A stretch of DNA of 64,000 bases from NCBI GenBank assembly GCA_964016885.1, contig OZ024757.1, forward strand, positions 7,626,001 through 7,690,000. Direction: 5' to 3'. A program made the translations under genes and the position numbers. The DNA is from Eledone cirrhosa (Eukaryota). The notes beneath the pieces are model-generated. The model did no database searches and was not told the origin of the DNA. It saw nothing but the letters and a program-made list of their open reading frames with translations. This document shows, piece by piece, positions 7,087 through 63,440 of the stretch. Every line of letters starts with the position of its first letter. Within the stretch, counting starts at the first letter, position 1.

Positions 7087-7141
<55 letters not shown>

Positions 7142-7179
7142 GATATTAAACAAATGGAAAATATTTATAAAACCATATT

Positions 7180-33006: not shown

Positions 33007-33057
33007 CAGTTGCATTTATCTTGCTTTATGTTCATACGAGTTATCACCAAGTCACAA
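33007..33057 (-). mobile_element. 50-bp 3' tip of Dong-like family B
   Basis: Identical to 38179-38229, flanked by (ATT)n. Confidence 0.85.
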
Positions 33058-33077
33058 TTATTATTATTATTATTATT

Positions 33078-36000
33078 TTTTTTTTTTTGAGTCTCAGTCA
33101 TTGATGTTAGTTAACTGGAAAGTTTGTTGAAATGAATATCAAGCCACTACCTGCAGCCTCAGATATTCAGGACGTATCGGAGGGTTCTTGCTGTTCCCAG
33201 CAAGCATGCCTTTTGAAGCGTTCCAAAAAGCGTGAAGGGGCCAATTTTCTTTAACCATCCCTGGAAACTTTTGGAGATAGTCCCTAGTGCGCCTATGACA
33301 ATCGGGATCACTTTGACTTCATGGCAGTTCCAAATCCTTTTTACCTCCCACTTTAAGTCCTGGTATCGGTTAATTTTCTCCCTCTCCTTCTCTTGCACTC
33401 TCGTGTCGAATGGGCAGGCCACATCCACAATCAGACACGATCTTTTTTCTTTGTCCACAACCACCAGGTCAGGTCTATTGTGTTCCAGTTTCTTGTCCGT
33501 CTGTATCCTAAAATCCCACAGCACCTTCACCTGATCGTTTTCTATCACCGACTCTGGCTTATGCTCATACCACTTCCCAGAATGTGGTAAGTTGTTTACT
33601 TTGCACAGGTGCCAGTGGATCACCCTGCCCATCACATCATGTCTCCAGCCCTTATAGTGAGTCTGGGCTAGGTGTTTACATTCGGATACAATGTGAGCCA
33701 CAGTCTCCTCTCTCTCTCCACAGATCCTGCACAGTGGGCTAGCCTCCTCCTTGTAAATGTGGTGTTTCAACCACTTCGTTTTGAGGGCCTGCTCCTGCGC
33801 AGCCATTAACATTCCTTCTTTAGCCTTTTTAAGGTCTTCTCTTTTCAACCAGTTCCATGTCTGTGGATCTCTAAATTCAGTTTTCTCAAAGAAGGTACTA
33901 TGAAGGGATTTTTCCTGAAGACTTCTCTTTCTCCTTGATGTTATTTCCTCCTTGGACATCCCCTGGCCTATTGTCCTCTCCTTCAGTACATTTCTGAGCA
34001 TTGGCTCCTTACTATCAGTCACGTATTTGTGTAGGTTGTTTTTCTCCATCTGAACACAGTCCTCTATGCTGACAAGACCTCTTCCACCCTCAGATCTCCT
34101 TAAGTAGAGTCTATCGACATCACTCCTCTTGTGGAACATGTTGTAGATAGTCAATAGCTTCCTAGTCTTCCTATCCATTTCTTTTTGTTCAGCAACATTC
34201 CATCTCAGAATTCCCGCACTGTACCTAATAATAGACACAGCTCGGGTATTTACTGCACTTATGGCATTCCTACTGTTCAGATGTGACTTTAATACGCTCC
34301 TTACTCTCCGAAGGTATTCACTTCTTATCAATTCCTTCATTTTTTTTGTTCTTGATGTCATCAGCCTCCAGAACGCCCAAATACTTGTATCCTTCCTCAG
34401 AGTCAATTTCCTTTATCAACTCACCTGTTGGTATCTGGATTCCGTTACTTCTGCTCAACTTACTCCTCCTCATCACAATGACTCCACACTTACTAATACC
34501 AAATTGCATACATATGTCATTGCTGAAAATACGGACAGTGTCAACAAGCACATCCAACTCCTTCTCACTCTTCCCGAAGAGCTTAAGATCGTCCATGAAG
34601 AGGAGGTGATTGATGGTAAGCCCTCCCTTTTCCAACCTGTATCCTGCTCACACTTTTCGCAGTACACTGGTCAGGGGCATCAGGGCAAGGACAAACAACA
34701 GAGGGGAGAGACTATCTCCATGGAAGATACCTCTCTTGATCTTCACGCTTCCCAAGGATTCTCCAGTTGATGTTAACTCTGTTTCCCAGGACTTCATACT
34801 TTTGCCCAACAACTGTCTGATGTTATCTGCCACCTTGAAGATCTCCAGGCTTTTGGTGATCCAAGAATGAGGCACCATGTCAAATGCCTTTTTGTAGTCT
34901 ATCCATCCCATGGCAAGACCAGTGTGTCTTCTCTTGCAATTCCTCATTACCATCTTATCAATAAGTAACTGGTCCTTTGTACCACGTGACTTCTTTCGGC
35001 ATCCTTTCTGTTCGTCCGGTAACAAGTTGTTTGTGTGGAGGTGATGGTAGATTTCCTCAGACATAATGCTTGTCAACAGTTTCCACATTACGGACAGACA
35101 TGTGATAGATCTATAGTTGGTAACATCATTACCCTTGATTCGGTCTTTCATTATCAGAACTGTGGTACCTTTTGTCAACCACTCTGGTATCTCACCTGAC
35201 ATCAAGCAGTCATTGAACATGGTTATCAGTTTCGGGTGGAGGGATGTTATGTTTTTAATCCAATACCCCTGCACACCTTCTGGGCCAGGTGATGTCCAGT
35301 TGGTTAGTTTTTTGGCCTGCCCCTTAAGAGTTTCAACTGTGATACTCAAATCAGTTTGTTGGTGTGCCTGTTCACTGATCTCCTTCTGTACTGTCTCAAT
35401 CCACACTGCCTGGTCATTATGTTTAACATCCTGCTCCCATATTCCTCTCCAGAATGTTTTAGTTTGTTCCGCCTCAGGGATCAAGTCGTTGCCTCTTTCT
35501 TTCCCTTCAAGCTGTCCAAACAGCATCTTCTGGTTGTTGTCGAACATGCGGTTCTCTCTATACTGGCTGACTCTTTTCTCGTATCGCCTGATTTTTGTAC
35601 TCTTTGCTACAATGCGTTACTTCAGTTCTTCTATGATAATATTTAGCTTTTTCCTCCGAGTTTTTTACTTTATTTCCAGTCTATTTTTAGTATCTATGTT
35701 TTTTAGTGTCCCATTCAGTAGGGACTCAAGCTTTTCAATGTCATTTCTCATTTCCCTGATTTGACCACTCAGTCGTTTCTTCCACCAAGGCTCTGCTCTT
35801 TCTTGTCTGTTGTTTCCTCTCGCTTTTATACCAAGTAGTTTCCTCACCGTATATGCTGTTGCTTTGAGGATATTGTTGCACTGATGAAGGCTCCTCGCCT
35901 CAAGGTATGGGATGACTTTGTTTACCTTAGCTGTTGTTTCTTTTAACTTTTTCCTATCTACAAATCTTAGGTTCATAGGTCTCCCACTATCATTGTTCAA

Positions 36001-38158
36001 TTCATCTACCACTAAGTTTAGGATATCTACCAAATCTTGTCCTAGCCCGTCAGCATTCATCTCCTCAGTTGCCGTATCTCTGTTCCAGGTATTATTTATC
36101 TCAGCATTCAGATCATTGTCTGTTTCGGATGGTTCCTCCGTTCTCTCGACCTCCCCACCTTCATTTCCCACTGGCTCGCTTGCCTGGCATACTCCACCCT
36201 CCATCTCCAAGCTAATCTCTCTGCTCAGTTCTTCCAGTTCCAGCTCGCTTATCCACCCATTAGTTCTTATTACCCGAGCCTGCCCGGCCAGTTTTTGTTC
36301 ATCTAATTTAAATGGACCAATCTCGTTCCAGATGTTATGCATCCTTTTCCTATAGCCTTTCTCCTTGGGGTTACTCTTCAGGTAACATTGCATAACAGTT
36401 CTATTCAATTCTTTCGTCCAGTTGGTTCTGGTCTCTTTCCTTCTTCTTCTTCCTCCGACACCAGCAGTATTTGGTTGACAGCCAGGTCCCTGCTGCTGAG
36501 TCAGGGAGCACCTGTTGGGTGAGAGTCTGTCACATGACATTCTAGTCTCCATTTCACCGTTATTCGAACTGTTTAGGTTCGACATTTAAACACTCTTATC
36601 GAGGATTGGCGAATGTATGGTTACATAACCACCGGTGAATTACTTGTCTCCGGTGGTTTCGTCACTCCACGTGACTTTTGTGTGGCATTATCACGCTGTA
36701 GACGAACCCAAATAAACAAAGAAACAGGCAGAAAAAAACCCAAAAATGAATAAGCATAAGTTTCATTGTAATGTAGTGTTTGAATGTCTGACTTAGTTTT
36801 TCCCTTCCCTTCTCTGTCCGTCCGTTTGTTTTTCTCTTCATTTTTATTTCCTTTACGTTTTTCGTTGTTGCTGTGCTGCTTTGATTTTGATTTTTTTTTT
36901 TTGATTTTGACCAGGTCATCAATTCAGTCTATTTATATATTTTGATGCCTTCCTCTTTTAGTGAGAATTCTACAATGTAGCAGGAGCTATCGGGAGAGAA
37001 TAGCGGCGGTAGTGACAATGAGGCAGCGGTAGCGGCGATTGCGGTGCTGTGCCAGCAGCAACCAGCAGGAGGTAGTGGGAGAGAATAGCGGCGGTAGCGC
37101 TAATGAGGCAGCGGCGGTGGCGATGTGGTCGTATTATTGTAGCGATGGTGTTGAAGATGGAGTAGAAATTTGAGTCGACTTGACCAGGGTTTTCATCGTG
37201 GCAGTGGTGGTAGCACTGGTGGGAAAATTATCTTTAGTGAAATTATCATTAGTCGCGTATATGTGTTGACATAAATACCTTAATATTGGAATTAAACATT
37301 TTGTGAAAACTAAAACTTGATTTTGATTATTGTTTTTTTTTTTTTTGACCGGGTCATCAATTCAATCTATTTATATATTTTGGTGTTTTCCCCTTTTAGT
37401 GAGAATTCTACAATGTAGCAGGGGGTAGCGGGAGAGAATAGCGGCGGTAGTGATATTGAGGCAGCGGCGGCGGTGGTGGTGGCGGTGCTGTGCCAGCAGC
37501 AACTAGTAGAAGGTAGTGGGAGAGAGTAGCGGCGGTAGCGATAATGAGGCAGTGGTGGTGGTGATGATGTGGTCATATTACTGTAGTGATGGTGTTGAAG
37601 TTGGAGTAGAAATTTGAGTCGACTTGACCAGAGTTTTCATCGTGGTAGTGGTGGTGGTATTGGTGGTGAAATTATCTTTAGTGAAATTATCGTTAGTTGC
37701 GTATATGTGTTGACATAAATACCTTAATATTGGAATTAAACATTTTGTTAAAACTAAAACTTGAGGCAATAGAAATAGTAATTATTATTATTATGCTGAG
37801 ATTAGTGGTGGTGGTGGTAAAATTGCCGTTATCTGGCTGTTGTGTTTAGTGTACACAGAGGGGTAATGGGGTAGGTGGTGTATCTAGTTTCTGATGTTGG
37901 TGAAATTGCTGGTATTTGGCTGTTCTATATAGTGTAGACAGAGGGGGTTTTCTTCCATTTGTAACCATTTTCTCTTTTGAATATAAAATGTATAATACAA
38001 AATTGAATATTTGAGCGATATAACAATATATTGTGGATCCGAATTTTTTGGGACTCAAGCTGGATGTTTTATGCAACATTTGTACTAAGAATTGTTATTT
38101 CACAATTGATTTAAATATGTTAAAAAATCAAAACTTACGGGAGCGATTTCTCGACCTT
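33078..38158 (-). mobile_element. R4/Dong-like RLE retrotransposon family A, full-length, frameshifted (ORF 36585 to 33159)
   Basis: ORF pieces 35665-36585, 34648-35547, 34318-34635 and 33159-34406 are collinear with the intact 1130-aa ORF; (TAA)n on both sides; ~430-bp tandem duplication in the leader. Confidence 0.92.
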
Positions 38159-38178
38159 CTATTATTATTATTATTATT

Positions 38179-40119: not shown

Positions 40120-40120
<1 letters not shown>
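38179..40120 (-). mobile_element. Dong-like family B, 5'-truncated
   Basis: QGDSLSPLLF, FYMDDLK, YKYLG, RKEGGRGL, CPVC..H..C, RHD, RPD; (TAA)n flanks. Confidence 0.92.
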
Positions 40121-40164
<44 letters not shown>

Positions 40165-40170
40165 GTTGTT

Positions 40171-41531: not shown

Positions 41532-41533
<2 letters not shown>
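40171..41533 (-). mobile_element. Dong-like family A, 5'-truncated
   Basis: Matches the 3' 1.36 kb of A; truncated at gtatctggattcc. Confidence 0.92.
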
Positions 41534-41574
<41 letters not shown>

Positions 41575-41576
<2 letters not shown>

Positions 41577-43506
41577 AGTTGCATTTATCTTGCTTTATGT
41601 TCATACGAGTTATCACCAAGTCACAACCAGTGCCCGCAAGAGACAACAAGGTACGCCATGTTCAAGAAAGAACATACATACTCACACATGCATCTTTAGT
41701 GTTTAGACTTGTGATGTACTTATATTGACAGAATCTTCCTTAGTATATGGGCAGTTCCCATTAGTACTCTCTTTTGTATTTCTCCTATACGCGGGTTTCC
41801 TGGGATTTGCCATAAGTAATCATTAGACCCCTTAGGTATCATTCCGAGAGCGCCTACAACTACTGGTATTCTTTTAGTTCTCAATTTCCACATTTTTCCA
41901 ATTTCTATCTCCAGGTCCTTATACTTGCTCAATTTTTAAAATGTTTTTATAGATACATTCTTGTCTATTGGAACAGACATATCAATTAGCAGGCATACCC
42001 TCTTTTTAAAGTCCTTCAATATTATATCAGGTCTATTTGCATCTATTTTTCGGTCTGTATGGATGCTAAAGTTCCACAAGATTGAGATGTGATCTTTTTC
42101 AAGTATGGGAGGTGGTTGATGCTCCCACCAATTCTTTTGATGGGGCAGGTCAAAATGCTTACACATTATCCAATGTATGTATTGTGCAGCTCTGTCATGC
42201 CTGTTTAGGTATTTGGTTGGAGCTATAGGACTGCACATTGAAATTATATGGTCAATGCTCTCTGGTTGTTTTTTGCATACACGGCATAATGGGCTGCACC
42301 CATTTTTTATTATGTTGGCTTAGTAATTTTTTGTTGGTAATTTGTGCTGATATAATCAGTCCTTCAGTCTCCGATTTCAGTCCAGAGGATGCCAACCACT
42401 GATGGGTTAAAGTTTTGTCAACATCAGGATTGTTAGCTCGCTCTGCGTATTTTCCATATAGAGGCTTTTCTTGCCATTTCTTAGCCAGTTTCTGTAGCAG
42501 TTCTTTCTTTGCAGTTACTTTTACCTGCTTTGCTTTTTCTGTGTTTTCCATTTCACCAGTAAATGGGACTTCTGAAATTTGTAGTGCATTACTGTATCTT
42601 TGTGCATCTTTTGTAATGGAATATGATCTTTTAATGCTTTCGTGTTTCAAAACGAGTTTGATCATCCAATCATGTGATTCCCTTAGATATGTAGATAATC
42701 CAATTGTTGCAGTTTTCAACGCAATGTCTAACTGGATTAACCCACGTCCTCCTTCTTTCCTAGGGAGGTATATTCTATCTATATCTGCCTTATGGTGATG
42801 ATTCTGTGCATGGTTAAGAATTTTCGAATTTTTGTATCGAGCCTACGGATCTCTGTGCTTGACCAGTTGATGACATTGTAACTGTAGGTTACTACTGGTA
42901 TGGCAAGCGTGTTTATGGCATCGATCCTATTCCTTGCATTCAATTCCGTTCTTAAGATTGTTCTTACTCTGCCGTAACATTCCTTCCTTATCCTTTCCCA
43001 CATTGTCGAGTGCTTGATTCCGTCTCCTTCACAAACACCTAGATATTTGTAAGTTTTTTCTTGATCAAGTTCTCTTATCATGTTCCCCCGATCAAGATTA
43101 ATGTCTGAACTCTTCAGCAGCTTTCCTCTGGTGAACGTTGCTTTGGCGCATTTATCTAGTCCAAACTCCATTTTAATGTCATCACTGAACTGCTCCACAG
43201 TGGATAATAGACCTTGCAATTGTTCATCATTTATTGCAAATAGTTTCAGGTCATCCATGTAGAACAGGTGATTAATGGTTTTGTCATAGACTTTATATCC
43301 ATGTTTTGTTTCATTGAGCATTTTACTTAATGGTATATGTGCGATGCAGAATAAAAGCGGTGATAAAGAGTCACCCTGAAAAATTCCACAATTAATATTA
43401 ACCTCTCCAGCTTCCAGTGATTTTGTTTCACTATTCAAAAGGAGTGTCGTTTTCCATGTTTTCATACTGAATGACAAAAACCTCCTGACAACGGGGGATA
43501 TTTTGA

Positions 43507-43507
<1 letters not shown>
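41575..43507 (-). mobile_element. Dong-like family B, 5'-truncated at the same base as 38179-40120
   Basis: Shared end acaacgggggatattttgaa. Confidence 0.92.
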
Positions 43508-43545
<38 letters not shown>

Positions 43546-43552
43546 GTTGTTA

Positions 43553-44913
43553 TTCCTTGAATCTCAGTCATTGATGTTGGTTAACTGGAAAGTCCGTTGG
43601 AATGAATATCAAGCCACTACCTGCAGCCTCAGATATTCAGGACGTATCGGAGGGTTCTTGCTGTTCCCAGCAAGCATGCCTTTTGAAGCGTTCCAAAATG
43701 CGTGAAGGGGCCGATTTTCTTTAACCATCCCTGGAAACTTTTGGAGATAGTCCCTAGTGCGCCTATGACAATCGGGATCACTTTGACTTCATGGCAGTTC
43801 CAAATCCTTTTTACCTCCCACTTTAGGTCCTGGTATCGGTTAATTTTCTCCCTCTCCTTCTCTTGCACTCTCGTGTCGAATGGGCAGGCCACATCCACAA
43901 TCAGACACGATCTTTTTTCTTTGTCCACAACCACCAGGTCAGGTCTATTGTGTTCCAGTTTCTTGTCCGTCTGTATCCTAAAATCCCACAGCACCTTCAC
44001 CTGATCGTTCTCCGTCACCGCCTCTGGCCTATGCTCATACCATTTCTCAGAATGTGGTAAATTGTTTACTTTGCACAGGTGCCAGTGGATCACCCTGCCC
44101 ATCACATCATGTCTCCAGCCCTTATAGTGGGTCTGGGCTAGGTGTTTACACTCGGATACAATGTGAGCCACAGTCTCCTCTCTCTCTCCACAGATCCTGC
44201 AGAGTGTGCTAGCCTCCTCCTTGTAAACATGGTGCTTCAACCACTTCGTTTTGAGGGCCTGCTCCTGCGAAGCCATTAGCATTCATTCTGTAGCCTTTTT
44301 GAGGTCTCCTCTTCTCAACCAGTTCCATGTCTGTGGATCTGTAAATTCAGTTTTCTCAAAGGAAGGTACTATGAAGGGATTTTCCCTGAAGGCTGCTTTT
44401 TCTCCTTGATGTTATTTCCTCCTTGGACATCCCCTGGCCTACTGTCCCCTCCTTCAGTACAGTTCTGAGCATTGGCTCCTTACTATCAGTCACGTATTTG
44501 TATAGGTTGTTTTTCTCCATCTGAACACTGTCCTCTATGCTGATAAGACCTCTTCCACCCTCAGATCTCCTTAGGTAGAGTCTATCGACATCACTCCTCT
44601 TGTGGAACATGTTGTAGATAGTCAATAGCTTCCTAGTCTTCCTATCCATTTCTTTTTGTTCAGCAACATTCCATCTCAGAATTCCCGCACTGTACCTAAT
44701 AATAGACACAGCTCGGGAATTTACTGCGCTTATGGCATTTCTGCTGTTCAGATGTGACTTCAATACGCTCCTTATTCTCCGAATGTATTCAGTTCTTAAC
44801 AATTCCTTCATTTTTTTGTTCTTTATGCCATCAGCCTCCAGAACTCCCAAATACTTGTATCCTTCCTCAGAGTCAATTTCCTTTATCATTTCACCTGTTG
44901 GTATCTGGATTCC
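43553..44913 (-). mobile_element. Dong-like family A, 5'-truncated at the same base as 40171-41533
   Basis: Same truncation point and the same private frameshift (tcaaaggaagg). Confidence 0.92.
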
Positions 44914-44948
44914 ATTATTATTATTATTATTATTATTGTTATTGTTAT

Positions 44949-47900
44949 TCCTTGAATCTCAGTCATTGATGTTGGTTAACTGGAAAGTCCGTTGGATTGA
45001 ATATCAAGCCACTACCTGCAGCCTCAGATATTCAGGACGTATCGGAGGGTTCTTGCCGTTCCAAGCAAGCATGCCTTTTGAAGCGTTACAAAAAGCGTGA
45101 AGGGGCCGATTTTCTTTAACCATCCCTGGAAACCTTTGGAGATAGTCCCCAGTGCGCCTATGACAATCGGGATCACTTTGACTTCATGGCAGTTCCAAAT
45201 CCTTTTCACCTCCCACTTTAGGTCCTGGTATCGGTTAATTTTCTCCCTCTCCTTCTCTTGCACTCTTGTGTCGAACGGGCAGGCCACATCCACAATCAGG
45301 CACGATCTTTTTTCTTTGTCCACAACCACCAGGTCAGGTCTATTGTGTTCCAGTTTTTTGTCCGTCTGTATCCTAAAATCCCACAGCACCTTCACCTGAC
45401 TGTTCTCCATCACCGCCTCTGGCCTATGCTCATACCATTTCTCAGAATGTGGTAGATTGTTTACTTTGCACAGGTGCCAGTGGATCACCCTGCCCATCAC
45501 ATCGTGTCTCCAGCCCTTATAGTGGGTCTGGGCTAGGTGTTTACACTCGGACACAATGTGAGCCACAGTCTCCTCTCTTTCTCCACAGATCCTGCACAGT
45601 GGGCTAGCCTCCTCCTTGTAGATATGGTGCTTCAACCACTTCGTTTTGAGGGCCTGTTCCTGCGCAGCCATTAGCATTCCTTCTGTAGCCTTTTTGAGGT
45701 CTCCTCTTCTCAACCAGTTCCATGTCTGTGGATCTCTAAATTCAGTTTTCTCAAAGAAGGTACTATGAAGGGATTTTCCCTTAAGGCTGCTCTTCCTCCT
45801 TGATGTTATTTCCTCCTTGGGTATCCCCTGGCCTACTGTCCCCTCCTTCAGTACAGCTCTGAGCATTGGCTCCTTACTATAGGTCACGTATTTGTATAGG
45901 TTGTTTTTCTCCATCTGAACACAGTCCTCTATGCTGATAAGACCTCTTCCACCCTCAGATCTCCTTAGGTAGAGTCTATCGACATCACTCCTCTTGTGGA
46001 ACATGTTGTAGATAGTCAATAGCTTCCTAGTCTTCCTATCCATTTCTTTTTGTTCAGCAACATTCCATCTCAGAATTCCCGCACTGTACCTAATAATAGA
46101 CACAGCTCGGGAATTTACTGCGCTTATGGCATTTCTGCTGTTCAGATGTGACTTCAATACGCTCCTTACTCTCCGAATGTATTCAGTTCTTAACAATTCC
46201 TTCATTCTTTTGTTCTTTATGCCATCAGCCTCCAGAACTCTCAAATACTTGTATCCTTCCTCAGAGTCAATTTCCTTTATCATCTCACCTGTTGGTATCT
46301 GGATCCCGTTACTTCTGCTCAACCTACCCCTCCTCATCACAATGACTCCACATTTACCAATACCAAACTGCATACATATATCACTGCTGAAAATACGGAC
46401 AGTGTCAACAAGCACATCCAACTCCTTCTCACTTTTCCCGAAGAGCTTAAGATCGTCCATGAAGAGGAGGTGATTGATGGTAAGCTCTCCCCTTCCCAAC
46501 TTGTATCCTGCTCTCACTTTTCGCAGCATAATGGTCAAGGGCATCAGGGCAAGGACAAACAACAGAGGGGACAGGCTATCTCCCTGGAAGATACCTCTCT
46601 TGATCTTCACGCTTCCCAAGGATACTCCAGTTGATGTCAACTCTGTCTCCCAGGACCCCATACTCCTGCCCAGCACCTGTCTGATGTTATCTGCCACCCT
46701 GAAGATCTCCAGGCTTTTGGTGATCCAGGAATGAGGCACCATGTCAAATGCCTTTCTGTAGTCTATCCATCCCATGGCAAGATCAGTGTGTCTCCTCCTG
46801 CAATTCCCCATTACCATCTTATCAATAAGTAACTGGTCCTTTGTACCACGTGACTTCTTTCGGCATCCTTTCTGTTCGTCCGGCAACAAGTTGTTTGTGT
46901 GGAGGTGATGGTAGATTTCCTCAGACACAATGCTCGTCAACAGTTTCCACATTACGGGCAGACATGTGATAGGTCTATAGTTGGTAACATCATTACCCTT
47001 GATTCGGTCTTTCATTATCAGAACTGTGGTACCTTTTGTCAACCACTCTGGCACCTCACCCGACACCAAGCAGTCATTGAACATGGCCGTCAGCTTCGGG
47101 TGGAGGGATGTTAAATGCTTAATCCAATACCCCTGCACACCATCTGGGCCTGGTGATTTCCAGTTGGTTAGTTTTTTGGCTTGCCCCTTAAGAGTTTCAA
47201 CTGTGATACTCAAATCAGTCTGTTGCTGTGCCTGCTCACCGATCTCCCTCTGTACTGTCTCAATCCACCCTGCCTGGGCATTGTGTCTAACATCCTGCTC
47301 CCATATTCCTCTCCAGAATGTTTTAGCTTGTTCCGCCCCAGGGATCAAGTCGTTGCCTCTTTCTTTCCCCTCAAGCTGTCCAAACAGCATCTTCTGGTTG
47401 TTGTCGAACATGCGGTTCTGTTTATACTGACTGACTCTGTTCTCGTATCGCCTGATTTTGGCACTCTTTGCTACAATGCGTTGCTTCAATTCCTCTATGA
47501 TAATATTTAGCTTTTTACTCCTAGTTTTGTATTTTATTTCCAGTCTATTTTTAGTGCCTATGTTTTTTAGTGTCCCATTCAGTAGTGACTCAAGCTTTCC
47601 TATGTCATTTCTCATTTCCCCGATTTGCCCACTCAGTCGCTTCTTCCACCACGGCTCTGCTCTTTCTTGTCTGTTGTTTCCTCTCGCTTTTATACCAAGT
47701 AGTTTCCTCACCGTATTTGCTGTTGCTTTGAGGATATTGTTGCACTTGTGAAGACTGCTCGCCTCAAGGTATGGGATGACTTTGTTTACCTTAGCTGTTG
47801 TTTCTTTTAACTTTTTCCTGTCTACAAATCTTAGGTTCATAGGTCTCCCACTATCATTGTTCAACTCATCTACCACTAAATTTAGGATGTCAACCGAATC

Positions 47901-49473
47901 TTGTCCTAGCCCGTCAGCATTCATCTCCTCAGTGGCCGTATCTCTGTTCCAGGTATTATTTATCTCAGTATTCAGATCATTGTCTGCTTCGGGTGGTTCC
48001 TCCGTTCTCAGGACCTCCTCACCTTCATTTCCCGCCGGCTCGCTTGTCTGGCATACTACACCCGCCATCTCCAAGCCATTCTCTCTGCTCAGTTCCTCCA
48101 GTTCCAGCTCGCTTATCCACCCATTAGTTCTTATTACCCGAGCCTGCCCGGCCAATTTTTGTTCATCTAATTTAAATAAACCAATCTCGTTCCAGATGTT
48201 ATGCATCCGTCTCCTGTAGCCCCTCTCCTTGGGGTTACTTTTCAGGTAGCATTGCATAACAGTTCTATTCAATTCTTTCGTCCAGTTGGTTCTGGCCCCT
48301 TTCCTTCTTCTTCTTCCTCCAACATCAGCAGTATTTGGTTGACAGTCAGGTTCCTGCTGCTGAGCCAGGGGGCACCTGTTGGGTGAGAGTCTGTCACATG
48401 ACGTTCTAGTCTCCATTTCACCGTTATTCGAACTGTTTATGTTCGATATTTAAACACTCTTATCGAGGATTGGCGAATGTATGTTTACATAGCCATCTGT
48501 GGATCCGCCATCCCACTTGGCCCTTGTGTGGCATTATCACCACGCTGTAGACGAACACAAATAAACAAACAAACACACGGGCAGAAAGGGCCCCAAAAAT
48601 GAATAAGCATAAGTTTCATTGTAATGTAGTATTCGAATGTCTGACTTAGTTTTTGTTTTTTAAGTTTTACTTTTTCCCCCCTCTTCTCTGTCCGTCCGCC
48701 TGCTTCTCTCTTCATTCTTATTTTCTTTACGTTTTTGGGGTTTCTTTTTTTGTTTTTGTTTTTCTCTGTTTTTCTCGTTTTTTACTGTTGTTGCTGTGCT
48801 GCTTTTGTTGTTTGTTTTTTCTTTTTTCTTTTGAGTCTATCTATATATTTTGATGCCTTCCTCTTTGTTAGTAGTAGGAATTCTATAATGTGGAAGTGGT
48901 AGCCAGCAGAGACTGGCGGCGTTGGCGATACTGAGACAGTGGTGGTGGTGATGTCGATACCGAGGCAGTGGTGGCGGTGATGCGACCGTATTACTGTAGT
49001 GATGGTGCTGTAGCGGTGGCAGCAGCAGTGAAGGAGTCAGGGGGTGGTGGCGGCGGTGATGGGATAGTGGTGGTAATGATGGCCGTAGTGAGCGGTGGCG
49101 GTGAAGGTGAAAATGCTGTTGTGTTTAGTGTACACAGATGATGGGGTGGGTGGTGTATCTAGTTTCTGGTGTTGGTGAGTTTAGCTGTCCTATATAGTGT
49201 AGCCAGAGGAGAGGAGGGGGGGGGGGGTTCTTCTTCTTCCATTTATAGCCATTTTTTTTTGGATATACAGTGTACAATACAAAGTTGAATATTTGAATAT
49301 TTGAGCCTTATAACAATATATTTTGGGTCCGAATTTTTTTGGGGCTCAAGCCGGGTGCTTTACGTAGCATTTGTACTAAGAGTTGTTATTTCACAAATGA
49401 TTTAAATATGTTAAAAATTCAAAACTTACGGGAGCGATTTCATGACCTCCGTCACCTCGTGCGTCTTCTTCCC
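44949..49473 (-). mobile_element. Dong-like family A, full-length, potentially active copy
   Basis: Intact ORF, ~1-kb leader, (TAA)n on both sides. Confidence 0.93.
45024..48416 (-). CDS. R4/Dong-type single ORF: N-terminal domain, RT, CCHC knuckle, restriction-like endonuclease (1130 aa)
   Basis: NYRPITCL, EQKGC, WIDYRKAFDMVPH, GIFQGDSLSPLLF, LFMDDL, RSEGGRGL, CRIC..HIVSEC, RHD, NRPD..DVACP, K..RYQDL. Confidence 0.93.
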   Translation of the reverse strand: METRTSCDRLSPNRCPLAQQQEPDCQPNTADVGGRRRRKGARTNWTKELNRTVMQCYLKSNPKERGYRRRMHNIWNEIGLFKLDEQKLAGQARVIRTNGWISELELEELSRENGLEMAGVVCQTSEPAGNEGEEVLRTEEPPEADNDLNTEINNTWNRDTATEEMNADGLGQDSVDILNLVVDELNNDSGRPMNLRFVDRKKLKETTAKVNKVIPYLEASSLHKCNNILKATANTVRKLLGIKARGNNRQERAEPWWKKRLSGQIGEMRNDIGKLESLLNGTLKNIGTKNRLEIKYKTRSKKLNIIIEELKQRIVAKSAKIRRYENRVSQYKQNRMFDNNQKMLFGQLEGKERGNDLIPGAEQAKTFWRGIWEQDVRHNAQAGWIETVQREIGEQAQQQTDLSITVETLKGQAKKLTNWKSPGPDGVQGYWIKHLTSLHPKLTAMFNDCLVSGEVPEWLTKGTTVLIMKDRIKGNDVTNYRPITCLPVMWKLLTSIVSEEIYHHLHTNNLLPDEQKGCRKKSRGTKDQLLIDKMVMGNCRRRHTDLAMGWIDYRKAFDMVPHSWITKSLEIFRVADNIRQVLGRSMGSWETELTSTGVSLGSVKIKRGIFQGDSLSPLLFVLALMPLTIMLRKVRAGYKLGRGELTINHLLFMDDLKLFGKSEKELDVLVDTVRIFSSDICMQFGIGKCGVIVMRRGRLSRSNGIQIPTGEMIKEIDSEEGYKYLRVLEADGIKNKRMKELLRTEYIRRVRSVLKSHLNSRNAISAVNSRAVSIIRYSAGILRWNVAEQKEMDRKTRKLLTIYNMFHKRSDVDRLYLRRSEGGRGLISIEDCVQMEKNNLYKYVTYSKEPMLRAVLKEGTVGQGIPKEEITSRRKSSLKGKSLHSTFFEKTEFRDPQTWNWLRRGDLKKATEGMLMAAQEQALKTKWLKHHIYKEEASPLCRICGEREETVAHIVSECKHLAQTHYKGWRHDVMGRVIHWHLCKVNNLPHSEKWYEHRPEAVMENSQVKVLWDFRIQTDKKLEHNRPDLVVVDKEKRSCLIVDVACPFDTRVQEKEREKINRYQDLKWEVKRIWNCHEVKVIPIVIGALGTISKGFQGWLKKIGPFTLFVTLQKACLLGTARTLRYVLNI

Positions 49474-49535
<62 letters not shown>

Positions 49536-49537
<2 letters not shown>

Positions 49538-52500
49538 AGTTGCATTTATCTTGCTTTATGTTCATACGAGTTATCACCAAGTCACAACCAGTGCCCTCAA
49601 GAGACAACAAGGTACGCCATGTTCAAGAAAGAACATACATACTCACACATGCATCTTTAGTGTTTAGACTTGTGATGTACTTATATTGACAGAATCTTCC
49701 TTAGTATATGGGCAGTTCCCATTAGTACTCTCTTTTGTATTTCTCCTATACGCGGGTTTCCTGGGATTTGCGATAAGTAATCATTAGACCCCTTAGGTAT
49801 CATTCCGAGAGCGCCTACAACTACTGGTATTCTTTTAGTTCTCAATTTCCACATTTTTCCAATTTCTATCTCCAGGTCCTTATACTTGCTCAATTTTTAA
49901 AATGTTTTTATAGATACATTCTTGTCTATTGGAACAGACATATCAATTAGCAGGCATACCCTCTTTTTAAAGTCCTTCAATATTATATCAGGTCTATTTG
50001 CATCTATTTTTCGGTCTGTATGGATGCTAAAGTTCCACAAGATTGAGATGTGATCTTTTTCAAGTATGGGAGGTGGTTGATGCTCCCACCAATTCTTTTG
50101 ATGGGGCAGGTCAAAATGCTTACACATTATCCAATGTATGTATTGTGCAGCTCTGTCATGCCTGTTTAGGTATTTGGTTGGAGCTATAGGACTGCACATT
50201 GAAATTATATGGTCAATGCTCTCTGGTTGTTTTTTGCATACACGGCATAATGGGCTGCACCCATTTTTTATTATGTTGGCTTGGTAATTTTTTGTTGGCA
50301 GACACTCATCTTGTGCTGATATAATCAGTCCTTCAGTCTCCGATTTCAGTCCAGAGGATGCCAACCACTGATGGGTTAAAGTTTTGTCAACATCAGGATT
50401 GTTAGCTCGCTCTGCGTATTTTCCATATAGAGGCTTTTCTTGCCATTTCTTAGCCAGTTTCTGTAGCAGTTCTTTCTTTGCAGTTACTTTTACCTGCTTT
50501 GCTTTTTCTGTGTTTTCCATTTCACCAGTAAATGGGACTTCTGAAATTTGTAGTCCATTACTGTATCTTTGTGCATCTTTTGTAATGGAATATGATCTTT
50601 TAATGCTTTCGTGTTTCAAAACGAGTTTGATCATCCAATCATGTGATTCCCTTAGATATGTAGATAATCCAATTGTTGGAGTTTTCAACGCAATGTCTAA
50701 CTGGATTAACCCACGTCCTCCTTCTTTCCTAGGGAGGTATATTCTATCTATATCTGCCTTATGGTGATGATTCTGTGCATGGTTAAGAATTTTCGAATTT
50801 TTGTATCGAGCCTACGGATCTCTGTGCTTGACCAGTTGATGACATTGTAACTGTAGGTTACTACTGGTATGGCAAGCGTGTTTATGGCATCGATCCTATT
50901 CCTTGCATTCAATTCCGTTCTTAAGATTGTTCTTACTCTGCGGTAACATTCCTTCCTTATCCTTTCCCACATTGTCGAGTGCTTGATTCCGTCTCCTTCA
51001 CAAACACCTAGATATTTGTAAGTTTTTTCTTGATCAAGTTCTCTTATCACGTTCCCCCGATCAAGATTAATGTCTGAACTCTTCAGCAGCTTTCCTCTGG
51101 TGAACGTTGCTTTGGCGCATTTATCTAGTCCAAACTCCATTTTAATGTCATCACTGAACTGCTCCACAGTGGATAATAGCCCTTGCAATTGTTCGTCATT
51201 TTTTGCAAATAGTTTCAGGTCATCCATGTAGAACAGGTGATTAATGGTTTTGTCATAGACTTTATATCCATGTTTTGTCTCATTGGGCATTTTACTTAAT
51301 GGTATAAGTGCCATGCAGAATAAAAGCGGTGATAAAGAGTCACCCTGAAAAATTCCACAATTAATATTAACTTCTCCAGCTTCCAGTGATTTTGTTTCAC
51401 TATTCAAACGGAGTGGCGTTTTCCATGTCTTCATACTGAATGACAAAAACCTCCTGACAACGGGTGATATTTTGAAAATCTCTAAACATTTTTCAATCCA
51501 ACTGTGTGGCAAACTATCGAATGCTTTTTTATAATCTATCCAAGCAATCGATAGATTTTTGTGTCTATTATGACAATCTTCCAGTATCATTTTGTTAACC
51601 AGAAGCTGATCCTTACCGCCATATGAGCCTCGTTTACACCCTTTCTGCTCAATGGGAAATAGGTCATTTGTTATCAGGTGGTCATATGTGTATTCAGTTA
51701 GGACTGATGTTAAAATTTTATACATTGTGGTCAAGCAAGTTATCGGTCTGTAATTTTGGGGATTGTTTGTTTCATCATTCTTCGGAAGGAGGAATGTAAT
51801 GCCGTTAACTAGCCATGATGGTATCTTTTCTGACTCCTTAACTATTTCATTGTAAAGTTGGGCTAACAGCTCATTAGACTCAGTGAGGGTATTTATCCGA
51901 AAGTTTTTTATTTTGTCTTTTCCTGGGGATTTCCATTTGCTGGTTTTTCTTAGAGCCAAGCGCAACTGTTCAACTGTTATATTTTCCCATATTTGTTCCT
52001 CAAGGTGAGCTGTATCTTTCATTTGTCTGTCTATCCATGGGGCATGTATGTTATGAACTTTTTCTTCGGCCCAGAACTTTTTCCAGAATTCTTGCACTTC
52101 CTCCATGGGTGGTATTGATTTAGCAGTTATTGTTGACTTACCAATATTTCAGTAGAAGTTTCTTTGGTTGTTTTTGAACATATTATTGTCCTTATAGAAT
52201 CTAGATCGTTTTTCAAAGCGCCTGATACGAGCAGCTTTGGCCGACACTTTTTGCTTGATTATTTCTATCAGCATGTCTATGTCACATGTTGATTTTATAC
52301 TGTACTTTTTTTTCAATTTTCTAAGTTTAGTTTGTTTAACATGTTCACCTACTTTATAGTTTGTTAAAATTTCTATGTCAGATCGGAGAAGGTTTATTTG
52401 TCGATTGATGTTCTCTTGCCAAGTATATTTCTTGTGGGAATTCCTTTGTTTTTTCATTTTCACTCCACATAAGTGAGTGGTGACTTTAGCCGATGCATAA

Positions 52501-53495
52501 TAGAGATGATTTAAATCAGTAATGTTTAGTTTGTTTGTGATGATAATGTTTTTGAGAATTATGTTAGTCTTGTGTATTATCTTTTGGTTCTGTTTGGAGT
52601 TCTGGATCTTAGGGAGGGTGTCTCGTTGCCCCATGTCAGATTCTTTCATTTTCATCCATTCGATCATAATTTCATCCTTCAAGTTGGCAAGTTCATTCTC
52701 ATTCATTTCTTTATCATTTACGATCTCATTATTTTCATTTGGAGTTTCATCCTGAGCATGCACTCCCTCCACTTTTTCGCTCCTTTCTTTAATTTGTTCT
52801 GTTGCCAGTGATTCCGCCCCAACTCTGGGATTCGAAGTGTTACAGTTTACCTCGTTTTCACTGACACGTGCTTCATTTTCCCTTCGCTGACTTTGTGCTA
52901 CTAGCTTGATCTGATCAATTTCTATATCAGTTAGTAACTTTTTTCTTACAATATTTCTTCGTATATTGGCTAGTTTGTTACTGTCAATATAGCCTCTGTT
53001 TTCGGGATGTTTCTTTTTTCAGTTGATATATGTTTGTTCTGTATTCGATGTATTTGATGGGTAGTACATGGCAGTGTAGAAAGCCTCAAGGACTTCTTTA
53101 TTATCTTCCCTTGACCATTTTTCTCTCTTTTTCTTTGGATTTCTTGGTGGTGAGCATGGAGGGCCAACAGTAGGAGTATTCCGGTTATGGGAGGTCTCCA
53201 GCTCCGAAGTGATGGGAAGGTTTGAACCATTAGCTGATTTTTCGAACCCAGTCTGGTTCCTCTCTGAGGGACGCGGCCCTTTTTTACCCGGGTGACGGCC
53301 GATGCGGTATGAGATTTTATCATTAGACATTTACTTTATTTTGTCGCGTTTTATCCTTATCCGCCAAGGGGTAATCATTTCGTGTTACCACTTCTAGAAC
53401 GAGTGTCAACCAAGACTAGAGGGGTCGTTCTCCCCTAGAGACATGGCTATTCCCCGCCGGCCGCCATCCCGGTATTTCTTGGTCACGGGGTTTTC
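49536..53495 (-). mobile_element. Dong-like family B, full-length, frameshifted (ORF about 53330 to 49681)
   Basis: ORF pieces 53019-53330, 52149-52772, 50748-52106, 49897-50688, 49681-49893 with the same domain order as A but clearly diverged protein. Confidence 0.9.
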
Positions 53496-53589
53496 TTTTT
53501 TTTTTTTTTTTTTTTTTAATTAAATTGTTATTATCATGAGTGGTTCCTTAATGTGAGCATTGCGTGGCTTAAGAATGAAATTATTAATA

Positions 53590-54360
53590 ATTGTCTCCAC
53601 TCCAGGCACAAGGCCAGCAATCACCCAGTGCATTACAATAATATAATATACTTTTTGTTGTAGTTGGCTGTTATTGTTGTTGGCTATGCCGGTGGTGGTG
53701 CCGGGGCTTTTTATATTGTTGGTGAGGAAGGGGTGAGCCAGCAGTCCCATAATTGTTGATGTAGACGTTTGGCCGTGGCAAGGTCACCAAGTCAGTCTAT
53801 TTATATCTTTTGCTAGCCTCTCTCTTGTCTAGTGCTACCGTCACCTTCCCTTTTCTCTCTCAAGTTAACAGGGGAATAGTGTCAGTAGCATTGAATGAGT
53901 GGTGGCGGCGATGATGGATGTGGTGGGGTGGTGGCAGCGGTGGTGTTGTGGTTACTGATATAGTATCTATGAGTTTGTGTTCGTATGTTTAATATATATT
54001 TTCATTATATTTTGTGTTGACATATTCCCGTAAAATTTGAATTAAACATTTTTTAAAATTTGAGACAATAATACTAGTAATTATTATTATGATGCTGGTG
54101 ATATTATATTTAGTGTGATGGGATAGGTAGTGTATCAAGTGTATCAAGTTTCTGGTGTAGGTGAAATTGAAATTGCCGCTGTTCTATATAGTGTAGACAG
54201 AGGGTGTTTTGTTCCATTTATAACCATTTTCTTTTTTGAATACAAAATATATAATACAAAATTGAATATTTGAGCGATACAACAATATAATATGGATTCG
54301 AAACTTTATGGGACCTCATTCGGTGCCTTTATGCAACATTTGTGCTAAGAATAGTTCTTT
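53590..54360 (-). mobile_element. Copy of the family-A 5' leader module followed by a SINE-type 3' tail
   Basis: 54180-54355 closely matches 37921-38100 and 49190-49390; 53600-53635 is the SINE tail gcactgggtgattgctggccttgtgcc. Confidence 0.7.
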
Positions 54361-54502: not shown

Positions 54503-54710
54503 GGCGACCTACGTAGTAAATCGTATCATCGTGAGCTCCGCAAAGGTTTGTTATTTCCGTTTGTTAAAAATTGTCATTTATGGAAATTTTTTATTGTTAA
54601 CTGTTTATAAGCGCACATACATTGTTTTCCGAAAAGGACACCCAAAAAGATTGGGGCCTTGTGCCCAAAATTTAAACTTTTATTATTATCAAACAATTTC
54701 TTTGAAAAAA

Positions 54711-56683
54711 ATGGCTAATTCACCTCTGCACCAAGCAGCTGAAAGCCTTCCTCACAAAATAACACCTCACACCGACACCACCATTGTAAATGTTACTACG
54801 TTTGCCAACACAAAAAAAAATATAAGCACTAGCAATATTTTAAATTTGTCTCAGGCAGACATACATTTCCCGCCATTACCAATGACTGCAGGTGTTAAAG
54901 CCTCCACCACCACCACCACCACCACCATCGCGACAACCACCACTACCACCACCACCGCGACAACAGAAACAAAAGAAGAAAAAAATAAATTAACTCGTGA
55001 TGTCGAAATGAAATCAAGCAAAATGGACTCTTCCCCACCAAAGACGACTGACGTTACCACCACCACAACTGAAACTAAAATTAATATTAACGATAGCAAC
55101 ACCAACAACAATGACATTATAACCCCCCCCCCCTCAGTTTCGCCAGAGTAGCAAAACAATTCGAAGCATTTACGGTAACTCAGGAGGATTTAGAAAATGC
55201 CTAACAAATGGTAAAGAAAGATGGGTACAGGGTCAACCTCACCCCCCACCTAATAAAATGGAGCATCGGCGCCTATGCACCGTGTCGTATAGAACAATAA
55301 ATGTAAAATCGCGCCGAGTTGAACGGGCATCCGAGTCCCAAATCCAAAAAGCTTTGGGACATGTGTGGGCAAGAAAAACCCACATCAGACGTGGGCAAAA
55401 GTATGGAACAGTGGACGTGTTCTTTGAAACACCAGAGGAGGCTAGAGAACACTCCATGGCCCCATTAAGAAGTGACGACTTCACACTCGTCCCAAGCTAT
55501 TGTGGCCAGAGACTCGTAAAGATCAGGGTGACCCACGTTCCACCGGCCATCGAAATTCCCTGGCTAATAGAAGCCAACACAAAGATAATAGCAATAGCAA
55601 AAGAAAAGCAGGAGAACTGGTGCGGATCTGGGATGGAGCTCCTGATCCAAGCGGACCAAAAAAGCATTGAGGAGATCCCAGAGGTAATAGACCTCACTGA
55701 CGGCAGCCACCTCACGGTAATTGGCGAGGGCAGAAGACCTAGGTGTGTCGTTTGTGGTGAAGGAACCCACCTAAGGGCTTTCTGCCCTCAGGCTAAAAGG
55801 TTGAGGCCACCTCTCCAACCCACCCCAGTGACACAACCATCAACACCACCAGTAGCAGAGATGGCAGCAACAACTGTAGCAGCAACAACAGAAGCAACTA
55901 TAACAGCAACAACCCCAGCAACAGTAGAAAAACCAACACCACCACCACCACCAGCAAAACCAACACCACCACCACCCAACGCTTCAGAACTAGCACCAGC
56001 GCCTACACCATCCACCACGCCACAACCAAAACTAACGGCTGTGGAGGATTTTCCACTCCCCGGCCTATCACAACTGGAGACAGATTGTGACGACGAGGAG
56101 TGGGAAACGTATCCGGAAAAAAAAAAGAAACCAAAAAAGAAAAAATTCTCTTCCTTCCCCCTCCAAAAACAAAATACAGAGGGAAACAAATAAATTAAGA
56201 AACAAAAAAGTTAGGACAGATATGCCACCATCCACACCAGCATCACCAACCCCATCAACCCAAACACCAACACCATCACCATCATTAACCCCAACACCAC
56301 CATCACCTACACCACAAAAGTCATCAAAATGCGAAACAGAAACAAACGCACAACAAACGCAAACAAAACAGAACAACCAAAACGATACACACTACACAGC
56401 ATTAAATTTGAACAACAAGCAATTATTACACTACATCTAACACAACACCAGCATCACAGAAAAAGACAACAAAACAACCCCAAAATTCACACCACCTCCA
56501 CACATACAAATCACTCGCATCACACAGAAAACGTACATGACACTAAAACAAAAATTCCCCAAAGACATCGGAGACTTCCGACAAGCACTCTCCAGGAGGA
56601 TTTATAAGGACATCCTTCCTGAGGAGGCCACAACCAGTGAAAAGGATGGAAAAACCGTCCTTCCCCTACGAGAAGTAAGGTAA
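54711..56683 (+). pseudogene. Tx1-like ORF1 (RRM-like region, CX2CX4HX4C knuckle, Thr/Pro-rich), with stops and frameshifts
   Basis: MANSPLH start; RRGQKYGTVDVFFETPEEA; CVVCGEGTHLRAFC. Confidence 0.8.
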
Positions 56684-56717
56684 GTGGTCTTTCCCATCTT
56701 TTCCACTCCTTTTCAAC

Positions 56718-60112: not shown

Positions 60113-60130
60113 TATTATTATTATTATTAT

Positions 60131-60370
60131 TTGCATTTATCTTACTTTATGTTTATACGAGTTATCACCAAGTCACAACCAGTGACCTCAAGAGACAACA
60201 AGGTCCGCCATGTTCAAGAAAGAACATACATATTCACACATGCATCCTTAGTGTTTAGACTTGTGATGTACTTATATTGACAGGATCTTCCTTAATATAT
60301 GGGCAGTTCCCATTAGTACTATCTTTTGTATTTCTCCTATACGCGGGTTTCCTGGGATTTGCGATAAGTA

Positions 60371-60372
<2 letters not shown>
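60131..60372 (-). mobile_element. Dong-like family B, short 3' fragment
   Basis: Matches 38183-38420; (TAA)n flanks. Confidence 0.9.
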
Positions 60373-60406
<34 letters not shown>

Positions 60407-63400
60407 GAATGCTATAGTTGACGGAGGCTCGGCTCTGTAAGGTATTGCACATTTTGAACGCTATAACAATTGTAAATTGTTAAAACTTTTACCAACTTGT
60501 AGACAAAAACACCCTCCTCCTCGTGAGACGGGTCTTTCTGCCTGTTATTTGGCCCTTCGGGGTTAAATAACTGCTTATTAGGGTTTTGTGCCCAATATTT
60601 AATTTAAACAAAAAAAAACAACATGGCTACGAAAAAGAAATTTCATAGGTCACTCCCACTCATTCCGACTTCTTCTTGCTCAATCGTCACTACAGCAGAG
60701 AGAAGATTGTCTCTCTCCCTCCCTTCTTTAAATGTGTCTCTCTCCCTCCCTTCTCTTTCGCAAGCGGCGACAGAAAAGAAAAGTCTCGTGCAAAGCGTGC
60801 AAGATTTCTCCACGACAACAACGACGACGAAACAGGTGTGCGGGAAATACGAAAACCCATTTCATTCGTCTGACGTCAGGAATAATAGCAGTAGCAGCCG
60901 TAATAACAACAGCAACAGTGACAATGAAAACAACAGCAGCAGCCGCAACAGCATCAGCAGCAGCATAAACAACAACAGCATTAGCAGCAGCAACAACAAC
61001 AACAACCACAGCAACAGCGGCGGCGGCAGTAGTCGTAGTACCTGCAGCAACAACAAAAGTAACAGCAGCTCAAAACTCAAAACGCCAACTAACATAAGAC
61101 TGCTAAAAATAGCACAGAAACAATACACAAACACTAAAACGAAATTCCCCAACGCAGTTGGTAATTTCAGAGACCTAGGAGGTACTATCAACCGAAGAGT
61201 ATATTCGGACATACTCATAGAAGAGCCGATGACCAGTAGAAGGGACGATTCAACGGTCCCTTCACCAGACGATCAAGTGAAAAGGGATGTAAAATCCATC
61301 CCTCCTCTACGAAAAGTACGGTAAGAGGTCTTTCTCATCTTTTCCACTCTATTTTAAACATGACCTCACTCAGAATAGGCAGCATAAATGCGCGTGGCCT
61401 GGGGTCGTCATGGAAGCAGGTTCACCTGCTCAACGACCTCAGGTTATTAAACATAGATGTAGTAGCTAGGGAACCTGGCACGGTTGTGTCCTTGATCAAT
61501 TTAGATCACTCGAAAGCTTTCGATAGGGTCGACCATCGTTACCTAGCGGCAGTCCTGATGGCGGCTGACTTTGGGCCCGTCTTCAGAGGCTGGATCACTG
61601 CCATGCACAGCGACATCTGCTCTGTGGTGAGAGTGAACGGTCACCTGTCGGAACCGTTCAACATCATGCGCTCGGTCCGCCAAGGATGTCCCCTCTCGTC
61701 CCTCCTGTACGTAGTGACTCTCGAGTCATTACTGCACAAACTGGAGACGTTGAGGGGCATCCCGCGCGAACTAGGATGCGGAAGATCCGTGTCAGCATAT
61801 GCGAACGATGTCACCGTAGTGGTGTCGAACGCCAAACACATCGAGGCGATCGGCACTACACTAAGAGAATACGAAGCGGTGACAGGAGCAATGATCAACC
61901 AGGAAAAGTCAGTGGGCCTGCAGCTCGGCACCTGGAGAGGCAGGTCCATGCCGTCCAACAGCGTCGTCGGACGTTGGACGGACGGACCGGTTCAATTGAT
62001 AGGGGTCTGGTTCGGTCCGGACCTCCAGACGGACAAAAACTGGGACGAGGTGACGAGCAGGGTGGCTTCTCTCACACAGAAATGGGCGGAGAGGAAGGTA
62101 TCCCTTAAAGGTCGAGCGGAGGTGGCTAACGCGTACATCGCGTCTGTCATCTGCTACCGCCTGACCGTCGTACCTTGTCCTAAGCCTCGCCTGACTGCGC
62201 TGGAGCGTTTGCTCTTTCGCTTTTTGTGGAAGGGACGCGCTCCGATGGTCAGGCGGTCCATCTGTTGTCAACACCCGCTACGTGGAGGGCTGGGCATGCC
62301 GTGGCTGATGATGCGCAGGCACGCGCTCAGGCTACGACATCTCCACCTCCTCCTCGACGGTGATCAGGTGTGGTCGCCGTTTGCTAGACACGTTTTTCCC
62401 CAGCTCCTTTCCTTGACGGAGCTGCAATCCTGGGTCAAGCGAATACCGAGAGGGAGCGCCTGGAGACTGGAATCTCTTCAGGCGCTCACACCCCTCGACC
62501 AATCGGGCAATGTGATCGGTGGAAACTCCACCTCGGCGTTCTATAGAGGATTAGTGGAGGGGAAGAGCGACGACGTACTTGGGGAACCTCTAGGCGTCGA
62601 CGAAAATTAACTAGCCAATCTCTTCGGAAGAACTTTCGGGCCAGGGCCTATGGACAACTTCCAGAAATCTCTGGCCAGGCAGTGCTACCGAGGAGCCTTG
62701 CCAGTTTGGGATAAACTCTACAGGCATGGAGGTGCCGTCAGCCGGGCATGTCCAAGATGCGCGCAGGGCGACGAAACCGTCCTGCATGCACTCGTCCAAT
62801 GTCCGAAAATTGCTGACTTGTGGGTTTATGTCGAACACCTGCTGTCGCGTTTAGGACGGATCCGGCTATCATCTGAGTCCATCGTAAGGATTGCCCCGCT
62901 CTCCTATTTTAGCCGGGAAGGGCAGACAGTTTTTATCTGTCTGGTGGCCATGGCGAAAGAGGAAGTATGGTGGACACGTTTGAAAGGGCTGAAGACGAGC
63001 ACTTACCTCTTCGGTGATGCTCTGATTGACTTTTTCAAATTTCATTTGAAAAGGAAAATCAGAGTAGAGAGGGAAGTGCTCTCTTCCCAGCATTTTGTTG
63101 AAAGATGGGTGAGAGAAGCAAGAATGGCCCGAGTGAATGGGCCTACTCTGAGTATATATCTGTAAATTAAAGGTGGAAAACTGGGAGACGGCACTTGCCT
63201 TGGTGGTCAGGGTCACTGTGGCTTTTTATTGGGATTTCTCCACAAATGTCCCTCCGAAGTCTCCCCCCTATTGGGGAATTTTTCATTTTTATTTTTGGTT
63301 ACATCCTCTGTTTTTGTTTTTTACACGCAGAAATGCCCATTTGTACCGTCCTGTATTGTCCTGCACTGTCCTTAATGTCTACTTTATGTAAAACCTTGTG

Positions 63401-63415
63401 GTTAATAAATAAATC
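60407..63415 (+). mobile_element. Tx1-like LINE, internally deleted derivative with both termini
   Basis: Short low-complexity ORF1 60623-61324; ORF2 61360-63165 lacks APE and early RT, keeps later RT and CPRC..HALVQC; (ATT)n on both sides. Confidence 0.9.
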
Positions 63416-63440
63416 ATTATTATTATTATTATTATTGTTT

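Follow-up and report, generated by a model that had tools for sequence, protein, structure and literature searches.

A Dong/R4-type retrotransposon family of Eledone cirrhosa with a fixed leader that likely derives from a Tx1-type 5' end

Family A, a non-LTR retrotransposon family of Eledone cirrhosa, is best read as a Dong/R4-type RLE element with a fixed non-coding leader, which is likely a decayed Tx1 5' end and is predicted to act as a promoter. A probability of about 0.58 is assigned to this reading. The family was studied in a stretch of 64,000 nucleotides (the window; assembly GCA_964016885.1, contig OZ024757.1, positions 7,626,001 to 7,690,000 of the forward strand), the right half of which is an array of non-LTR retrotransposons set in TAA/TTA microsatellites. 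Family A is represented there by two full-length copies on the minus strand, A1 (44950-49473) and A2 (about 33057-38159), and by three partial copies. The leader forms an extra non-coding front end of 0.9-1.5 kb, with which the 5' region before the RLE ATG reaches 1057 nt in A1 and 1607 nt in A2.

A1 contains a single intact ORF (45024..48416, minus strand; P0001, 1141 aa from stop to stop) that encodes an RT, a CCHC knuckle and a PD-(D/E)xK-type RLE motif in a Dong/R4-like layout. The frame matches non-LTR RT (PF00078, E 6e-22) and the best PDB matches of the protein are R2 proteins. The C-terminal CCHC knuckle and endonuclease motif were read by eye in the translation. In the Pfam search of A1 zf-RVT stayed under the cut-off and there was no PF03372 match that would indicate an APE domain. 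A 3' UTR (44950..45023, minus strand) leads from the A1 ORF into (AAT)n. The target of the family is a TAA microsatellite: (AAT)n follows the 3' ends of A copies, and (TAA)n precedes the two full-length ones. The A2 ORF (33159..36552, minus strand) is broken. The single ORF with these domains, the TAA target and the occurrence of 5'-truncated copies are all shared with Dong of Bombyx mori and the R4 clade, and by ORF layout, domains and target element A is classed at the sequence level as Dong/R4-type; the RT tree, built on 48 of 121 RT rows, is one from which named R4 or Dong references are absent. For Octopus vulgaris, Dong-R4 elements are reported to be plentiful and to have been active in recent times (PMC13282606).

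The leader of A1 runs on the minus strand from 49473, directly after a (TAA)21 target microsatellite (49474..49536, minus strand) that doubles as the tail of the neighbouring element B, and it contains the start sequence quoted in the initial annotation. Its AT-rich head of 221 nt (49253..49473) is likely a remote homologue of a Tx1-type 5' UTR and holds two motif blocks (~49435-49421 and ~49306-49293) together with a donor-like GTAAGT at 49429. The leader body (48650..49252) opens at an A-run with ATGGCT, the ATG lying at 49252 and starting a frame of 20 codons. This motif had been placed about 230 nt into the leader; it is present, at 221 nt from the leader start or ~204 nt from ggtgacgg. 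Past the ATG the body is A+C-rich and G-poor, with the broken Pro/Thr-rich and then Lys-rich frames that had been described. The leader tail (48545..48649) comprises a T-rich tract and a 95-nt AG-free zone and ends in CTACAG, which resembles a splice acceptor. It is followed by the proximal 5' UTR of the family (48417..48544, minus strand), 89% alike in A1 and A2. The leader of A2 (36697..38159, minus strand) has its ATG at 37968, in the variant ATGGTT. Head and tail of the two leaders are ~89% alike, compared with 93-96% identity for the ORFs, and the leader middle is unstable, with a 444-bp tandem duplication in A2 (36881-37764).

The leader is a genuine part of family A and travels with it. 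Both full-length copies in the window carry it (2/2), and the leader-A junction is identical in these diverged copies, with neither TAA nor an A-run intervening. Four public sequencing runs, out of a list with 16 further rows, were mapped on 47300-49485, namely X1, X4, X5 and X23, of which X23 amounts to one uninformative read. In each of X1, X4 and X5, 29 of 30 bins are covered, the empty bin being a skipped repeat, and the leader bins are thus covered in three of the four runs. The leader-ORF junction is bridged by an X4 contig (48266-48620, depth 145) and by an X5 contig (48454-48620, depth 28) under an organism label that differs from that of X4; X1 and X4 may come from the window's own study, and the X5 label may not mean a separate species. 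The initial annotation had named linkage at this locus alone as grounds for refutation, and the second copy and the contigs of X4 and X5 contradict such a restriction. By summed contig depths, which are not copy numbers, leader and ORF are of the same order in X1 and X5. X4 departs from X1 and X5 in that its summed depth over the leader interior (48614-49343) exceeds that over ORF and head by a factor of several to ~20; an RNA library, enrichment of chromatin, a pile-up on low-complexity sequence or free copies of the leader could each account for this. Neither the leader pattern nor any relatives were found in metagenome and viral collections.

Two elements in the window serve for comparison with the leader head, Tx54 at 54503 and Tx60 at 60407, both on the plus strand. 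Their name follows the label of the initial annotation, their placement as Tx1 versus L1 being independent of any RT phylogeny with named references; traits of the Tx1/L1 group are present in the form of PF03372 and PF00078 at 56684-58963. The 5' UTRs lie at 54503..54710, with the ATG at 54711, and at 60407..60622. As had been noted, both elements have an A-run and ATGGCT near their start, at +209 in Tx54 and +217 in Tx60. The leaders resemble them in the ~210-nt AT-rich UTR, the A-run with ATGG(C/T)T, equal motif spacing and the A+C-rich composition after the ATG, and differ in having no ORF1 core, APE or RT and in following the opposite microsatellite strand.

The strongest result came from comparing the A2 head with the Tx54 5' UTR without gaps, with the ATG as sole anchor and the A-run excluded. 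Matches occur at 79 of 183 positions, a count reached by only four other registers out of 126,189. Scored by log-odds, this register ranks 1 of 126,189 (reciprocal rank 5 of 127,337), with a thin lead over the next register (9.5 vs 9.0), and is equalled by 3 of 10,000 run-preserving shuffles. At 172 nt no block shuffle of 5000 reaches the score, and A1 placed on the same Tx54 columns with its indels projected out matches at 75/172. Once the first block is removed (152 nt) the match is weaker, being reached by 62 other registers. The test was picked after inspecting the sequences and concerns one good pair among six. Two motif blocks have equal offsets from the ATG, -176 and -48, in A2 and in Tx54, by patterns defined after inspection, and AAAATGG[CT]T occurs four times over both strands, in the three leaders and in Tx54. 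The two Tx1 heads have 33 8-mers in common (5-6 at the ATG), of which A1 has 13 (2/3022 controls) and A2 has 9 (28/3022). Global UTR alignment to Tx54 is borderline, the score being reached by 2-9 of 1000 block shuffles for A1 and 1-9 of 1000 for A2, and by 3 and 14 of 4898 window controls.

Other comparisons do not recover the likeness. When aligned locally with Tx54, the leader score is equalled by 190/200 shuffles for A2 and 9/200 for A1, the 5'-truncated leader beside family B taken alone is not significant against Tx54 (387/5000), and a blind search for the best Tx54/Tx60 block ranks the leaders 43-227 and fails to single them out. Against the window's Tx1 5' ends the leaders give only low-complexity matches in local alignment, nhmmer and tblastx, methods of the kind that had been proposed for the check. 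The claimed likeness to Tx60 falls within the shuffle range both when the first 300 nt are aligned locally (A1 50/200, A2 77/200) and in global UTR alignment (A1 43-57/1000, A2 174-264/1000 block shuffles). Short blocks are common to leader and Tx60, and A1 reaches 1/500 only under a laxer dinucleotide shuffle.

Leader head and Tx54 are 43-45% identical, with 29 transitions and 66 transversions, a near-random ratio that indicates saturation. At this distance the donor is likely an old or unsampled Tx1 relative and not this neighbour. The proposal that a Tx1-like neighbour supplied the 5' module thus survives in part, as a remote gap-free likeness to the family of Tx54, and fails for Tx60 and for a donor in the immediate vicinity. 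The saturated changes, and the lack of a Tx1 match in local alignment, HMM and protein searches, also suit an explanation in which the leader is a long 5' UTR native to A, or a promoter taken from some host sequence, and in which AT-rich promoters with a strong start context resemble Tx1 by chance or convergence. Mouse L1 is reported to take up 5' UTRs of unknown source (PMC3600994). This explanation is unlikely, although the best placed of the alternatives, as it leaves aside the gap-free collinearity across the 183-nt head in the ATG register, the equal motif spacing and the ORF1-like composition past the ATG. On sequence comparison the descent of the leader head from a Tx1-type 5' UTR is quite probable.

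The part of the leader beyond the ATG is more decayed. The frames opened by the leader ATGs span 20, 40 and 27 codons, the first being that of A1, and the A+C-rich, G-poor composition of the body is like that of Tx1 ORF1 and unlike that of the RLE ORF. The ORF1 core of Tx54 (55243-55806, plus strand) has no Pfam match and has 262 relatives in the 50% library, some with zf-CCHC. These relatives keep N-terminal and C-terminal motifs, and in the Atlas the core resembles RNA-binding proteins of CCHC and ZCCHC3 type. A word-index search with Tx1 ORF1 gave no match, whereas a full HMMER search recovered the relatives. Profiles built from the 262 relatives detect the conserved terminal motifs in the Tx1 controls, which take ranks 1-2, whereas HMM and frameshift-tolerant profile searches for ORF1 protein in the leaders reach best ranks of 20-172 among ~630 peaks. 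The ORF1 portion of the leader is dead, its ORF1 origin being backed by composition only, and A is accordingly not a two-ORF RLE element. An ORF1-like peptide that caught the eye in the leader beside B was rejected (52/1000 shuffles at the DNA level; profile rank 309/638); as a protein search query it gave no match, a result of little weight, and the donor family was not found this way. The leader tail was also rejected as a relic of a Tx1 3' UTR or spacer, with 0 of 36 comparisons under 10/500 shuffles and both controls at 0/500.

Several further features of the window were recorded. Tx60 (60407-63416, plus strand) has lost the ORF1 core and the APE-to-RT stretch through internal deletions but keeps both ends, and is possibly a non-autonomous derivative. 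Both Tx1 ORF1 stops (56675-56685 and 61321, plus strand) lie in a GTAAG splice-donor-like context followed by a pyrimidine-rich spacer. Among database proteins, P0190, P0223 and P0230 have a piece of the ORF1 family fused to host-like domains (astacin/ShK, LDLa) and are probably gene-model artefacts. A large inverted duplication at 4029-13382, with arms 92-98% identical, contains a 386-aa ORF without Pfam matches whose Atlas look-alikes include RT-associated DUF8422/HTH clusters; it is possibly a Penelope-like element. An array of (GAAAAAA)20 lies at 8072-8212.

The splice-like sites of the leader allow another reading, in which it is mainly a 5'-UTR intron behind a short first exon, with the GTAAGT at 49429 as donor and the acceptor at 48545, and the unspliced RNA serves as the template for copying. 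Such an intron would fit either origin of the leader. Donor-like and acceptor-like sites are kept in both A copies, and of the window's 3483 YAG sites 7 equal the A1 acceptor in AG-free length and pyrimidine share. Splicing would also lower the number of upstream ATGs before the RLE ORF from 11 to 5 in A1 and from 19 to 3 in A2. Against this, no leader-skipping joint appears among the 15 listed of 22 and contigs of X4 and X5 span both sites unspliced, in runs that are not on record as RNA. Processed copies would be expected if splicing were efficient, and comparable acceptor-like sites exist in Tx1 3' UTRs. An intron as the main identity of the leader is therefore rather improbable. Translation of the RLE ORF behind 11-19 upstream ATGs may use non-canonical initiation, or may proceed from a minor RNA from which a leader intron has been removed.

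A third leader copy, absent from the initial annotation, stands outside family A. It lies at 53520-54358 on the minus strand, is 5'-truncated and 82-88% alike to the A heads, contains a short SINE tail and is preceded by (GAA)20 and (TAA)27. It is collinear with A2 over three blocks, which are followed by a run of 22 A (53496..53517, minus strand) and then by the 5' UTR of a full-length but broken copy of RLE family B (49537..53495, minus strand). Family B, with one full-length and four partial copies in the window, is distant from A, with 26-44% amino-acid identity and no blastn match, and the two occupy separate, well supported branches of the RT tree (48 of 121 rows, built without named references). 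As A and B diverged long ago, the join between leader and B is recent. A template jump would be expected to leave this pattern, in which A-tailed leader RNA precedes the B 5' end, but the leader also has A-runs of its own. Tentatively, and at somewhat less than even odds, the A-tailed leader before B would stem from a later jump like the one proposed for A. A 10-mer common to the proximal UTRs of A1 and B was dismissed as chance (342/1000). Families A and B also occur together in a 3.4-kb tandem duplication (38160-41568 and 41556-44949, 98.2% identical), the unit of which is a truncated B plus a truncated A. A 3' fragment of family B splits Tx54 (59118-60377) and is accompanied by a 129-bp repeat (59118-59246 and 60249-60377).

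The orientation of the microsatellites bears on how the leaders arrived. Each of the three is preceded on its sense strand by (TAA)n or (GAA)n/(TAA)n, as are A and B. The two Tx1 5' ends are instead preceded by (TTA)n, and the complete Tx1 3' end that was inspected leads into (ATT)n. The microsatellite target said to be shared by Tx1 and A is shared in that the same arrays are used, but the Tx1 and RLE families use opposite strands. As their orientation matches the RLE elements, the leaders were likely placed by RLE machinery and not as Tx1 copies, and the leader likely moved as RLE cargo. It is very improbable that the leader is instead a separate non-autonomous element that targets the same TAA arrays and merely adjoins A and B: the copy before unrelated family B with its 22-A run and the depth excess of the leader interior in X4 (summed contig depth, library type not on record) would suit it, but neither TAA nor an A-run separates leader from A, the same junction recurs in two diverged copies and bridging contigs occur in two runs. 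Free leader copies may nonetheless exist besides the A-linked ones.

Under the preferred reading, a Dong/R4-type element with a leader of likely Tx1 origin, the captured piece would comprise the 5' UTR and ORF1 start of a Tx1-type LINE. An ancestor of A would have gained it when the RLE reverse transcriptase jumped onto Tx1-derived RNA; whether the leader came by such a template jump or by recombination of DNA within the TAA array is evenly balanced. R2 is reported to jump in vivo onto other RNAs, with one event possibly having founded a subfamily (PMC3414825). After the capture, ORF1 would have decayed and the head would have been kept.

An internal promoter is a general trait of L1-group 5' UTRs, and it is moderately probable by analogy that the leader acts as one, which would free A from read-through transcription and ribozyme release. 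Those RLE retrotransposons outside rDNA that have been studied are described as co-transcribed and then released by a ribozyme, and Dong of Bombyx mori as having a self-cleaving HDV-like ribozyme at its very start, next to the TAA repeats that precede it (PMC3774820). A differs from this Dong in its 5' region of 1057-1607 nt with a Tx1-like head and in the absence of a detected ribozyme. For A, including its proximal 5' UTR, and for B there was no Rfam match to a 5' HDV-like ribozyme such as Dong and R4 have, a strict pattern scan gave 0 matches and a looser scan gave only unconvincing, non-conserved matches, all of these being scans without a positive control. A promoter in the leader would take the place of the ribozyme known from silkworm Dong. 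A sigma-70 promoter scan was at chance level, this bacterial consensus being irrelevant to an animal. A more far-reaching and doubtful version holds that the leader is a portable Tx1-derived promoter cassette, which would substitute for a ribozyme and be passed between A and B lineages by template jumps, its coding remnant being spliced out for translation and kept in the RNA that is copied.

Parallels exist in other systems. The R2/R1 hybrid SIDEs of Drosophila are likewise RLE/APE cross-clade chimeras of elements with a common target locus, and in the U12-R2 variant an RLE element likewise received foreign RNA at its 5' end by a template jump, possibly as the founder of a subfamily (PMC3414825). 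The hybrids are reported to be non-autonomous and to join the 5' end of an RLE element to the 3' end of an APE element, whereas in A the polarity is reversed and the ORF is intact; in U12-R2 the ribozyme is reported to cut still at the R2 5' end (PMC3414825). In mammalian L1, as in A, a young coding 3' part takes a new 5' end, with swaps reported between co-active families (PMC3600994). The new 5' ends are described as coming from inside the L1 clade or from sequence of unknown origin (PMC3600994), whereas the likely donor and recipient in A differ in endonuclease class.

No earlier report of such a leader was found in the literature searched, which lay outside Repbase/Dfam and most subscription papers; repeat-consensus supplements may describe it. 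Capture of a 5' end is already known, and the notable new aspect is that a family that appears autonomous would have crossed the RLE/APE divide. In repeat libraries, leaders of this kind may be divided or wrongly labelled. The transcription of RLE retrotransposons outside rDNA is poorly understood, and the leader of family A, if the reading is true, would represent promoter capture across the RLE/APE divide by an autonomous, high-copy RLE family, the reverse of the non-autonomous R2/R1 hybrids.
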